In this document: positions 20,117-52,982 of the stretch, piece by piece
Position numbering within the stretch: position 1 is the first letter of the stretch
Layout: every line of letters starts with the position of its first letter
NCBI GenBank assembly: GCA_034530875.2
Contig: JAVRCJ020000007.1
Span: 1 to 64,000, forward strand
DNA length: 64,000 nucleotides
DNA from: Nostoc sp. DedSLP01
GTDB taxonomy: Bacteria; Cyanobacteriota; Cyanobacteriia; Cyanobacteriales; Nostocaceae
Direction of reading: 5' to 3'
The notes under the pieces: model-generated
Told to the model about the DNA's origin: nothing
Seen by the model: the letters and a program-made list of their open reading frames with translations, nothing else
Database searches by the model: none
Made by a program: the position numbers and the translations under genes

Positions 20117-20190
20117 GGACGTATAGCTCAGTTGGTTAGAGCGCTACGTTGACATCGTAGAGGTCACTGGTTCGAATCCAGTTACGTCCA
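20117..20190 (+). tRNA. tRNA-Val(GAC)
   Basis: Acceptor GGACGTA/TACGTCC, D arm GCTC/GAGC, anticodon arm CTACG-TTGACAT-CGTAG, T arm ACTGG-TTCGAAT-CCAGT. Confidence 0.96.
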
Positions 20191-20231
20191 TTTTTGTAGA
20201 TTGTCAAATTATTTGTCTGTGTGTGACTTAA

Positions 20232-20315
20232 TGTACATTAACTAATTATTTGTCACTGTTAACAGATTAATGTCATTTTTAACAAATTATTGTCACTGTT
20301 AACAAATTAGTGACT
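20232..20315 (+). mobile_element. CAST left (tRNA-proximal) end with tandem TnsB-binding sites
   Basis: TGTACA followed by TTAAC-N-AT-rich-TGTCA repeats starting at 20238, 20259, 20279 and a degenerate one at 20299. Confidence 0.9.
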
Positions 20316-20380
20316 ACTAGACAGTCTGGATACTCTATATTAAAGATGAATTGCTATAGTTACAATAACAGTCTAATAAT

Positions 20381-20409
20381 GACGTAACTGGATTCGCTTT
20401 CAACCCACC
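20381..20409 (-). CRISPR. Delocalised homing crRNA (truncated repeat plus 16-nt spacer to tRNA-Val)
   Basis: Minus strand GGTGGGTTGAAAG + CGAATCCAGTTACGTC; spacer identical to 20173-20188 of the tRNA, preceded by PAM GTT (20170-20172). Confidence 0.93.
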
Positions 20410-20458
20410 CATTTCTAAAAAGCTTTTGTTAGAAAAAATCGTAAACTGATATAAATAC

Positions 20459-20639
20459 CTTTCAGGTCGCCTATAGCTGGGAGCAGTATTGAAATCGAGA
20501 ACTTCAAAACAAAATAAATAATCCACCTCCCTTTCAACCCGCCTCTGCCTGGGAGGGGTGTTGAAACTGTACGAACACGCGACCAATATTCCTATATCGC
20601 GTCTTTCAACCCGCCTCTGCCTGGGAGGGGTGTTGAAAC
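20459..20639 (-). CRISPR. Minimal type V-K CRISPR array: 2 identical 37-nt repeats, 1 degenerate repeat, two 35-nt spacers
   Basis: Repeat GTTTCAACACCCCTCCCAGGCAGAGGCGGGTTGAAAG at 20603-20639 and 20531-20567; 27/37 degenerate copy at 20459-20495; spacers 20568-20602 and 20496-20530. Confidence 0.92.
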
Positions 20640-20840
20640 CCCCTGCGCTTCAAACCCTTGATTTGCCATACTTCTGAAGGCATTTTTGTCACGTCTCCCA
20701 AAATCGCCTCTCAGTTAACACTTAAAAAAGTAAATCAACTGACACGTTAAAAGCTATAAGCCTCATTAAACAAGCGATTTAAAGTTTTGGCAGAACCCCA
20801 GGGAAATTGACCCCGCTTCGATTCGCCAAAAAATAATTAA

Positions 20841-49529: not shown

Positions 49530-49647
49530 TGAGCCTGTTTGAGAGGATCTGACGCTCTTAACGTCGCTAACGCTAAGGCACTAAGGCATTTCAATTATTT
49601 GACAAAAAGCGATCGCTTTATAGTATTCGATTACATTGGCTTGTTAG

Positions 49648-50151
49648 TTAATAACGCTTCTGAGAGTTTGCCATCTCAGCAAAAGTCATAAAACACCTTT
49701 GACACCAACCATCCACCCATAACGCTGGAATCTTAAATCTTGCCCCACAGTTTGGACATTCTGACAGCAAGCTTAACTTGTGGCTCGCGCATCCCTGCGT
49801 TACCTTCAACAGCCATTCAATCTTGTGACATGGTGACTCAGTATAACAAGCAGCACATAACCGAATCGGCTCCATTTTCATTCCCACCCCAGCAGGTGGT
49901 AACATCTGCACTAACCTATCGACTTCAACACCCACTACAACAGCCAATGCTTCCAACTGCTGCTGAGAAGGAGGTGGATTAAACCGAAACTTTTCCCAAC
50001 GTGCGATCGCACCCCCAAGTCCTGCTGCTTTACCTAAGCCAGTTGGGGTTAAATCATTTGCCCGTCGAAAGCGCCCCAAAAAATGACTTAGGCTTTCTCC
50101 TTGATATGGTTGAACTTTAAACAGCCAAGGCTTAATATTTTCCACTTCCAT
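49648..50151 (-). CDS. tniQ: CAST TniQ
   Basis: PYQGESLSHFLGRFRRAN, RLCAAC, ECPNC..WCQRC zinc fingers; overlaps the tnsC stop. Confidence 0.95.
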   Translation of the reverse strand: MEVENIKPWLFKVQPYQGESLSHFLGRFRRANDLTPTGLGKAAGLGGAIARWEKFRFNPPPSQQQLEALAVVVGVEVDRLVQMLPPAGVGMKMEPIRLCAACYTESPCHKIEWLLKVTQGCASHKLSLLSECPNCGARFKIPALWVDGWCQRCFMTFAEMANSQKRY

Positions 50152-50987
50152 CACTTGTACTCAGCAGCTACTTCCTTCAAAGTTTCCAAGTCAATTTTTT
50201 GCAGTCCCTTTTTTAAAGCCCGGATTGCAGCCTCTCGGAGAATCATATCCATCAAACCGATATAACCTCCAGTTGCTTCCCCTAACGTCTTCAACATCGT
50301 CTTACTCGAAAGGTTGGAAGCAACTGGCAATCTTAGTATTTGCTTCTCCCAAATATCCACCGTTCGCTTAAAATCTTCCCCTGACATCTTTCCAAAACGG
50401 TGACAAGATCGAAAACGGTTATAAACCTGCTCATCCCGTTTAATCACGGCATCTAAGCGATCGGTTCCTACTAAAATCACTGCTATTTCCAACCTGTCAA
50501 AAATATCACGCACTTCCGCAAAAGTTTTGGGCTTAAAGCGGTCAGCTTCATCAATAATCAACATCTCTACCCCGCAACCTTTGAGAACCCGCAGTGTTCT
50601 ATCTCGAATTTCTGCCACTGTTCCTTTAGTTACTTGATATTTCAAATGCTCCATAATTACCCCAAATAATTCCTTAGCACCGCACTCCTGGGGAATTTGG
50701 ATATAAGCTACAGGTACAGTTGGGGGTTTTCCTGCAACTTGAGAGGGTTTATTCCTAAGCCTATAGGCATCACAACCCATTGTTTTACCTGTTCTCGACT
50801 CACCTACCACACGCCCAGATTGCCTTGATTGGCGCTTTCCTTCGAGCCAATCATGGAGCATTTGCACTTGTTCAAGTGGGACATAACCTTTACGATTTAA
50901 TCGTTGAATCTCCGCCTGTAATTTTTCACTATTAACAGGAATATCACCCAATTGTTGAGCAACTGTTTGAGCTTCTTGTAAAGTCAT
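50151..50987 (-). CDS. tnsC: CAST AAA+ ATPase TnsC (TniB family)
   Basis: GESRTGKT, LIIDEADR, DEQVYNRF. Confidence 0.96.
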   Translation of the reverse strand: MTLQEAQTVAQQLGDIPVNSEKLQAEIQRLNRKGYVPLEQVQMLHDWLEGKRQSRQSGRVVGESRTGKTMGCDAYRLRNKPSQVAGKPPTVPVAYIQIPQECGAKELFGVIMEHLKYQVTKGTVAEIRDRTLRVLKGCGVEMLIIDEADRFKPKTFAEVRDIFDRLEIAVILVGTDRLDAVIKRDEQVYNRFRSCHRFGKMSGEDFKRTVDIWEKQILRLPVASNLSSKTMLKTLGEATGGYIGLMDMILREAAIRALKKGLQKIDLETLKEVAAEYK

Positions 50988-50989
50988 TT

Positions 50990-52705
50990 TTACCACCCGT
51001 AATCTTCACGCATTTGTTCATAATCAAAAACTTCCGGCATCTCTTGCTCAAGTTGGCTGTCAATAGATACTGCCTCTACTGATTCCTCTGGCTCAACAGG
51101 TATAAGTTGTTTAGCTTTTTTGATCTCAGCCTGTTCTACTTTCTGACGCTCTTTTTTAGTTTTCTTTTGAGTTTGGAATGTTTCGCGTTCTCTAACTTCA
51201 GCCAAAATTGAGCGATTGCTCACAGCCTTACCCGCTTCTCTGACCTTACGACTAATAGCTTTTGCCTCATCTAGAGATAGTTCCTCTGTCTCCAAATCTT
51301 GAGCATACGCGCGGGCAAGAAACACCTCTTTATCCCCTTCTGTGCGGTAAACCAAAATCGTTGTGATATCTCTGGGGTCATATCGCAATACAACACTTTC
51401 CCCTGCGTAACCCGCTAAGAGTTCACCTCGATACATCAAGTTTTCAAATTGCAGATATCCCCCGCGTTGAATTTGTCGCCGTGTTTGCTTCATTAGGCAA
51501 ATATCCAAATCCCTCTCGGAAAGTAAATCAGGGGAAGCAATTAAACCAGATTCCCAGCGTTGAAATCTTGTCTGATCGCCCATTCGAGCGTCAGATCGCT
51601 GGTTATAATTATTAACGATGTAACGCACCAACAATTGCTCTAACTGCCGCAACGTTAAGCAAGCTTCTTTCTCTGCTTCCTCTGGTCGCTCTTGAACGTT
51701 TGAACCTGTGTATCCTTGTAAAGTTGAGAATAATTCTGTATTTAGAGTTTTAAACGGACGCTCAACAATACCACCTTCGGATGGGCGATCGCGCAAATGA
51801 CAAACAAACCCTAACTGCACTCCTATTTGCTGTAAATGGTTGGAACGAAAATCCTTACCCCCATCTGTATAAAAGTGTTGCGGCAAACCAGAAGTACCCC
51901 ATTCTTCGTGAAGTCCATATTCTGAACCATATTGCTTAGGCAAAATTGCATGACGTAGCGCCAAAGCTACAACCTGAGAACTTGGTGCATCGTAGCCCAA
52001 GTTAATCCCCATAATGCAGCGCGAATAACTATCAATAACCGTTGTTAACCAAGGACGACTAAGAATTTTGCCATGCTGGTCTACTAATAAAACATCAACA
52101 AGGGTGTGGTCGGATTGCCAAACTTGGTTACTATGTTCTATTTGTAAATCTTTTCCATCACGGGTTTTTACTGATAAGCGCGAACCACGCCAACCTGGAC
52201 TGCGAATACTTTTAGCTTGCTCAATTTTATCTATTAATGGTTGCAAAATTCGGTAAACCGTCATGTGGGAAAGAGGCTTAACTCCTAGTTCATCAGCTCT
52301 AGCCTTAGCTTTGATAAATACCTGCTGGCGAGTCATCCTTTTACTTCCCTTATTACCCTGCTTATAGGTATTCAAAATAAACTCTTGCCAGTTTTCATCA
52401 ACTCGATGCTTCCCTTTATCCATCCGTTGATTTTGTGCTAGTCCAGCCAAACCCTCCTGTTCCCATTTGTCTACTAGTCGTCGCACTGTACGTACTGACT
52501 TCCCAAGCTTTTCTGCTGCTTCCTTGAGCTTTTGAGTATATGTAGTGCGATCGCTATTGTCTAAAAGACTTTGAATCACCTCCATTTTCAGCAAGGCTTC
52601 ATCTGAAAGTTTAGAAACTATAACGTTTGCTTCAGCAAGATCGTTACTAACATCTGCGGAGCTTGCCCAAGTCGTAGAGGTTGTAGAAAATTCTGCATCT
52701 TGCAT
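50990..52705 (-). CDS. tnsB: CAST DDE transposase TnsB
   Basis: WQSDHT, YTDGGKDF, GGIVERPF catalytic residues; YDPRDIT; C-terminal DYEQMREDYGW hook. Confidence 0.96.
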   Translation of the reverse strand: MQDAEFSTTSTTWASSADVSNDLAEANVIVSKLSDEALLKMEVIQSLLDNSDRTTYTQKLKEAAEKLGKSVRTVRRLVDKWEQEGLAGLAQNQRMDKGKHRVDENWQEFILNTYKQGNKGSKRMTRQQVFIKAKARADELGVKPLSHMTVYRILQPLIDKIEQAKSIRSPGWRGSRLSVKTRDGKDLQIEHSNQVWQSDHTLVDVLLVDQHGKILSRPWLTTVIDSYSRCIMGINLGYDAPSSQVVALALRHAILPKQYGSEYGLHEEWGTSGLPQHFYTDGGKDFRSNHLQQIGVQLGFVCHLRDRPSEGGIVERPFKTLNTELFSTLQGYTGSNVQERPEEAEKEACLTLRQLEQLLVRYIVNNYNQRSDARMGDQTRFQRWESGLIASPDLLSERDLDICLMKQTRRQIQRGGYLQFENLMYRGELLAGYAGESVVLRYDPRDITTILVYRTEGDKEVFLARAYAQDLETEELSLDEAKAISRKVREAGKAVSNRSILAEVRERETFQTQKKTKKERQKVEQAEIKKAKQLIPVEPEESVEAVSIDSQLEQEMPEVFDYEQMREDYGW

Positions 52706-52746
52706 ACAGTGTTTTATCAAAACATAGTTGTATTATACTAATCTAC

Positions 52747-52982
52747 TGACAAATAATTTGTTAATTTATGCAAAACCACTATATTTCCAGGTTTCTAGGA
52801 AGTGACAATTAAAATGTGAAATTTATGCTATTTGACATCTAATTTGTTAAATCTGACTTGAAGGGGTATTACTGTCTTCAATAGCAAAACCCCTGATACA
52901 ATCCTTGCTATATCAGGGGTTTAGGTATTTTGAATATTGTGACAATATTTTGTTAAATTGACAAATAATTAGTTAATGTACA
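52747..52982 (-). mobile_element. CAST right end with five TnsB-binding sites
   Basis: TGACA...TTAA-type sites starting at 52747, 52804, 52832, 52940, 52959; terminal TGTACA; 12-bp IR AAACCCCTGATA/TATCAGGGGTTT at 52887-52922. Confidence 0.9.

Follow-up and report, generated by a model that had tools for sequence, protein, structure and literature searches.

The first 64,000 nucleotides of contig JAVRCJ020000007.1 of Nostoc sp. DedSLP01 (assembly GCA_034530875.2), hereafter the window, contain a CRISPR-associated transposon (CAST) of type V-K, which very probably sits at the tRNA-Val site predicted by its own anchor (homing) spacer and splits the ends of older transposons. The element occupies 20232-52982 (32.8 kb), is bounded by a perfect 24-nt inverted repeat and, judged by its sequence, is a gene-complete V1 member of its type, ordinary for its family, with a predicted function. 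Its class, its homing device and its exact tRNA-Val protospacer are already in print, and the layered history of its insertion site is the only part which goes beyond the published catalogues. A first-pass annotation of the window had taken the element to extend over 20117..52982; the right boundary stands, but 20117-20190 is the host tRNA gene which serves as the target and lies outside the element.

This target, tRNA-Val(GAC), is on the forward strand (ARAGORN; Rfam RF00005) and is the sole GAC gene among the four Val genes called in the genome. Within it, a GTT protospacer-adjacent motif (PAM; 20170-20172) precedes the T-arm/acceptor protospacer (20173-20188), again on the forward strand. 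Inside the element, the anchor unit (20381-20410, reverse strand) is made up of a truncated repeat at about 20397-20410 and a 16-nt spacer at 20381-20396, the reverse complement of which is identical to the protospacer at 16/16 positions, and across the genome this 16-mer is found at the spacer and the tRNA protospacer only. The left end begins 59 nt beyond the PAM, inside the published range of 46-82 nt for V-K elements (PMC9938897). The arrangement typical of a V-K anchor, i.e., a truncated repeat, a spacer of about 17 nt, a GTN PAM and a left end at such a distance, is found here, and the first-pass proposals of a homing spacer against this tRNA, and of an insertion at the site which that spacer predicts, are borne out by the match, the PAM, the orientation and the distance.

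The ends and genes are those of a V-K element. As had been proposed, the terminal inverted repeats (20232-20255 and 52959-52982) are 100% complementary over 24 nt, and the 24-mer occurs twice in the whole 8.57-Mb genome. Arrays of predicted TnsB sites accompany both, with at least three in the left end (20232-20320, forward strand, inner limit approximate) and five in the right end (52745-52982, reverse strand). The cas12k gene (21100-23037, reverse strand; 645 aa) encodes a full-length protein (NF038191, 973 bits against a cut-off of 150; PDB 7n3o, E 1.8e-271) with inactivated RuvC motifs, Ser461 and Pro555 falling in RuvC-I and RuvC-II and matching ShCas12k in the alignment; we take these residues to stand in place of the catalytic Asp and Glu. 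Divergent from it lies cvkR (23107-23538, forward strand), encoding a MerR-type repressor (PF13411; PDB 7xn2, Alr3614, E 1.1e-33). Adjoining the right end, all on the reverse strand, are tnsB (50990-52720), tnsC (50151-50996) and a short tniQ of V-K type (49648-50154; 168 aa), assigned by PADLOC V-K models and alignment to ShCAST structures in the case of tnsB and tnsC, and by PADLOC TniQ_V (E 2e-77) and PDB 7n6i for tniQ. TnsC carries Walker A and B motifs and TnsB a DDE triad, its D204, D286 and E320 aligning with the catalytic D205, D287 and E321 of ShTnsB (PMC9371665). All five genes, described earlier as uninterrupted, are indeed open frames with V-K profile matches (cvkR by PF13411 and PDB 7xn2). 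The further claim that this copy supplies every part needed for reconstitution holds for the element's own parts, but it omits ribosomal protein S15, a host factor for V-K CASTs (PMC11656645, PMC11300857), the gene for which is outside the element on contig C36. TnsA gave no match among the 21 scanned ORFs of the element, and a fused TnsAB, a long TnsD and Cascade genes, diagnostic of type I-B2 and I-D TnsD CASTs, were not among its ORFs either; these identities were rejected on that account. Within type V-K, the anti-repeat AACCCACC, the CvkR regulator and the 59-nt distance are those of V1, which has its own anti-repeat 2, its own repeat end and a distance of about 60 nt, whereas in V2 the regulator is Arc_2 and the distance 54 nt (PMC12416283).

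Around this insertion, remnants of older elements are stacked behind the tRNA. At 20195-20221 (forward strand; tRNA +5) an older left end of V-K type survives as a 27-bp stump, which likely derives from a D-loop-guided CAST, as relatives ending at +5 to +9 carry D-loop anchors. At tRNA +32 begins a mini-element bounded by TGTGAC-type ends, which the CAST has cut after 10 bp (20222-20231, forward strand); the 381-bp remainder of the mini-element resumes on the other side (52983-53363, forward strand) and ends in the inverted partner of the TGTGAC-type end. The 52 bp next to this (53364-53415, reverse strand) are what remains of the far end of a TnsD-type element resembling I-B CASTs and match the far end of an element in genome G009, which starts at +32 and encodes a 501-aa TniQ/TnsD, Cas6 and a weak Cas5 match; the G009 TnsD used as a query against the present genome gave no match at E 1e-60. 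The same nesting is found in G004, there with a perfect 5-bp duplication, while in G125 the stump, mini-element and far-end remnant are present and the inner CAST is absent. A larger enclosing element starting at 20195 was also considered and rejected, there being no partner end of its pattern past 52982 on contig C7 and the stump breaking off after 27 bp, which is also the case in many relatives. Copies of the mini-element with 89-90% identity occur in G068, G104 and G094, and part of 52983-53500 is matched in 85 of 121 genus genomes.

The same layering recurs across the genus. We surveyed 123 of 124 tRNA-Val(GAC) matches (one partial match was excluded) from 122 of 127 genus genomes, using strict motifs which undercount the ends, and one locus had just three downstream bases. 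V-K-like ends lie at +3 to +14 in 73 of the 123 loci, TGTGAC-type ends at +30 to +34 in 28 and inner V-K ends at +41 to +49 in 10. A D-loop anchor was found in 21 loci, and in the 19 with a called end this was always 57-61 nt from the D-loop PAM; a T-arm anchor was found in six, in four of which 58-59 nt separate the PAM and the inner end. The three tiers match putative D-loop-guided V-K, TnsD-type I-B and T-arm-guided V-K insertion, respectively, and the middle tier is assigned to TnsD-type elements because of the G009 element at +32. In the present locus a D-loop-guided V-K element at +5 would have arrived first, followed by TnsD-family elements at +32 and then by the CAST at +42. One tRNA gene may in this way preserve a record of three targeting routes, each with its own fixed insertion distance, which is of modest value. 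A literature search over titles and abstract openings yielded no paper on stacked or nested V-K ends. Short inverted copies of the 5' half of tRNA-Val also stand directly behind the tRNA in L038, L248, L250, L251 and similar loci.

A more far-reaching interpretation is that tRNA-Val(GAC) is a three-tier contested site, at which the T-arm anchor represents selected displacement, i.e., it cuts the resident end and takes the tRNA-proximal slot. If this were true, insertion at +41/+42 would land inside the left end of whichever occupant had used +3-14 or +30-34. We consider it improbable: inner ends follow a called older end in 8 of 10 cases against a background of 85 of 123 loci, so that a preference for occupied sites is indistinguishable from that background.

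Comparison with known systems underlines how ordinary the element is. ShCAST (Tn7747, Scytonema hofmanni) shares the gene set and order, the DDE triad and the GTN PAM, with no TnsA here, and Cas12k, TnsB, TnsC and TniQ align to the ShCAST structures over nearly their full length. The present element differs in its cargo, its terminal sequence and the absence of a native 5-bp duplication. AnCAST, from Anabaena sp. PCC 7120, and the 118 systems of type V-K described by Ziemann et al. 2023 (PMC9938897) have the same layout from tRNA to right end, namely left end, truncated repeat/anchor, array, tracrRNA, cas12k, divergent cvkR, cargo and tniQ-tnsC-tnsB; as here, their cargo includes restriction-modification and toxin-antitoxin genes, and the PAM-to-end distance falls within their range. 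In contrast to these systems, the anchor matches 16 rather than 17 nt, and the length of 32.8 kb includes a 13.7-kb TPR-CHAT/caspase block. Comparison with CAST catalogues, which the first-pass annotation had suggested, turned up the same T-arm tRNA-Val anchor in three published CASTs. In the matching rows of PMC12416283 Dataset 3 (Ziemann et al. 2025), the CASTs with Cas12k BAY83128.1, WP_181927535.1 and QXE24819.1 have the same anchor spacer and protospacer and a CvkR, with left ends 36-42 nt past the tRNA, and their proteins, where shown, differ from those of the element. A D-loop anchor on the same tRNA-Val is catalogued for a fourth CAST (WP_012411901.1; PMC12416283), and Hsieh and Peters 2021 (10.1101/2021.02.06.429022), with a list of 152 complete systems, state that different protospacers often serve to recognise one tRNA. 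As for the neighbours, McCAST inserts 29 +/- 1 bp past the tRNA and PmcCAST is said to be similar (PMC9881144); TGTGAC-type ends at +30 to +34 fit the distance of about 29 bp of PmcCAST-like type I-B2 elements with a tRNA-targeting TnsD (PMC9881144, PMC10293859). Such elements are the neighbours split by the CAST rather than the CAST itself, and only remnants of their ends lie in the window. Beside catalogues of 118 to 152 complete systems, this is one more V-K CAST, which would make a usable, unremarkable parts kit.

Several observations nevertheless weigh against the reading of a V-K CAST at the site predicted by its own spacer. Position 17 of the usual 17-nt anchor slot is a mismatch to the target. 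Two of the six T-arm-anchor loci, L175 (G093) and L253 (G061), have their left end at the D-loop tier, just 20-25 nt from the PAM, although this likely reflects a collapse of stacked ends as a later event. Runs X2 and X3 span both junctions with no differences, but as a possible source of the window they are not independent, and the contigs of a further run, X5, which resemble much of the element, are separate pieces that may not be linked. Finally, the five flanking bases, on which the first-pass annotation did not remark, are CTTAA on the left and AAAGG on the right, i.e., there is no 5-bp duplication at the native insertion, which leaves an origin of both ends from a single event in doubt.

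A 5-bp target-site duplication is the product of the V-K reaction and is frequently lost in nature. In this copy, uninterrupted mini-elements in L043, L044 and L046 fix the overlap at the junctions at 2 bp, and the two junctions sit 3 bp out of register. For comparison, 26 relatives were available, 18 of them with both ends called (ends being paired by contig and orientation, and kin not being independent). Seven of the 18 have a perfect 5-bp duplication and one matches at 4/5 positions. The overlap is 0-1 bp in six, and in the other four it is 3, 6, 7 and 9 bp, the 9-bp case falling within a tandem repeat. As the duplication is perfect in only 7/18 related elements, its absence bears on the history of this copy and not on its class. 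The simplest account of the 2-bp overlap would be a clean insertion with a 5-bp duplication, followed by a 3-base deletion beside the right end and involving no repeat targeting. We regard this as a serious, if somewhat doubtful, possibility, in keeping with the identical 24-bp ends and with the relatives that retain a perfect duplication. It cannot, however, yield the overlaps of 6 and 7 bp found in G012 and G078, nor the unlike left and right ends of G012; overlaps above 5 bp and ends of this kind suggest that elements inserted here repeatedly and recombined. We infer that the 3-bp register shift arose from multiple hits at the site, followed by recombination between the copies. That most of the natural elements checked are without a clean duplication bears on target immunity and on post-insertion processing in native hosts.

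The element also has a composite ancestry. Its TnsB is 92-95% identical to that of a clade which shares its end sequence, whereas Cas12k and CvkR are closest to those of G044 (87% and 95%), an element with a TnsB only 69% identical and with different ends. On the Cas12k tree (25 of 27 elements, G062 and G038 being dropped for partial Cas12k) it is sister to G044 with support of 100/99, and the group defined by TnsB requires at least four changes; the TnsB tree was a quick version, on which the monophyly of a group defined by TnsB identity is circular. With Cas12k and TnsB having different nearest relatives, the element is, on these comparisons, a module mosaic, and the changes on the Cas12k tree together with the discordant relatives indicate that module exchange is general in the genus. 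The first-pass description of the element as intact is thus right as to the complete parts list, but has to be qualified for the missing duplication and the mosaic make-up. Such a mosaic may have lost the ability to move on its own, if the swapped Cas12k module is mismatched with TniQ/TnsC or the ends are poorly paired, leaving an element which is complete on paper only. Besides the mosaic itself, the degenerate array, the mismatch at anchor position 17 and the lack of a duplication would be in line with this; yet every reading frame is open, the catalytic motifs are preserved, the ends match the type of the clade to which TnsB is so similar, and such mosaics are common among the neighbours, which makes loss of mobility unlikely.

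Mid-element, at 33772-33909 on the reverse strand, a decayed fragment from the 3' part of a second tniQ covers 46 codons with one stop and shares 70% identity with the intact gene; it could be taken for a deletion seam. Together with the register shift and the different groupings of Cas12k and TnsB, it would fit a chimera formed at this very site from two tandem CASTs. However, the fragment is no closer to the TniQ of G044 (65%) than to those of the close clade (65-76%), and elsewhere, in further elements and contigs, it accompanies the toxin-antitoxin pair with 92-93% identity. Run X5, which comes from another study, has contigs with 96-97% identity to 20612-35000 (with replaced stretches) and 47551-52982; they include the fragment, and the right-end contig continues into different flanking DNA. 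These findings weaken the case for a local seam, and we judge an origin as a chimera at this site to be very unlikely.

For mechanism, function and expression we reason by analogy. With ShCAST as the model, Cas12k carrying the tracrRNA and the anchor crRNA would bind the T-arm protospacer next to the GTT but leave it uncut. TnsC would then be recruited by TniQ and host S15, and TnsB would join the left end first, at a point about 59 nt downstream, in a replicative reaction without TnsA. The system is presumably kept repressed by CvkR. The fraction of words found in RNA runs was only 0.05-0.20.

The RNA components lie between the anchor and cas12k. A short CRISPR array (20434-20639, reverse strand) has two identical 37-nt repeats (20531-20567 and 20603-20639), a degenerate repeat (20459-20495), two spacers of 35 nt and a 25-nt spacer remnant. 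The spacers had no match in 300 order-level genomes or 126 genus genomes, and searches of plasmids and phages gave weak matches only, none convincing, the longest being to a Nostoc plasmid (E 0.3) with a gap required for a GTG PAM. Next to the array is a predicted V1-type tracrRNA of about 216 nt (20840-21055, reverse strand), the limits of which (~21055-20840) follow those of similar tracrRNAs in the catalogue. Its anti-repeat 1 lies near 20977, and anti-repeat 2 occupies 20841-20848. The region is 91-94% identical to the same region of close relatives. A tracrRNA had been listed among the parts from the outset, and its position between cas12k and the 37-nt-repeat array, both anti-repeats and the catalogue likeness argue for it, but a Rfam scan matched no family to the region.

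Repeat pairing was compared over 31 cas12k loci (32 rows, G044 being entered twice). In each of the 23 loci in which an anchor was found, the pairing between anchor repeat and anti-repeat 2 is complete (8/8 bases), whereas the dominant array repeat has a mismatch in 27 of 30. One idea, linked to that of selected displacement, is that anchor guides may be privileged over array guides through this fuller pairing; titles and abstract openings held no paper on point, and the difference may not matter because the mismatched repeat base is usually unpaired (PMC9486595). The present element follows the clade-wide pattern, with full pairing of the anchor repeat (20397-20410 with 20841-20848) and one mismatch in the array repeats.

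The cargo begins with a type I restriction-modification system, hsdR, hsdM and hsdS (23605-28796, forward strand), assigned by family and profile matches. Next come an NsnB/AriA-like ATPase to which a CARF domain is fused and a partner gene that has a weak NsnC match (29095-32359, forward strand). Run X5 has 550 other letters in place of 28790-29631, where the CARF part lies, but keeps the ATPase and its partner, so that the fusion is variable. The reverse strand then carries the toxin-antitoxin pair, PemK/MazF-like and Panacea-domain (32398-33502), and, beyond the tniQ fragment, two TPR proteins, three TPR-CHAT proteins and a caspase-DUF4384 protein (34070-47756), a block of 13.7 kb with 120-bp TPR repeats. 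Three small ORFs with no family matches (48294-49529, forward strand) come next, and DNA similar to them adjoins tniQ in the G044 element.

A Cas12k match is present in 75 of the 121 genus genomes searched, this genome included, which holds two further V-K systems, one whole on C4 (6523-31662) and one apparently split between C64 (~3047-6312) and C51 (from 27519). At locus L039 (C15:90853-90904), 5 nt behind tRNA-Val(CAC), there is a 52-bp palindromic mini-element with two V-K-type terminal sites, the flanks of which form a perfect 5-bp duplication. Other CAST-like ends occur as a 338-bp pair (C11:113949-114286) and singly behind a tRNA-Gly gene (C1:72786), and end-like matches lie at C23:10843-13802. 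Within the window and outside the element, a cobalamin riboswitch (19841-20023), divergent from the tRNA, precedes genes for DUF1636 and cbiJ, and an ORF at 58145-58849 has a weak match to TraL (conjugal transfer).

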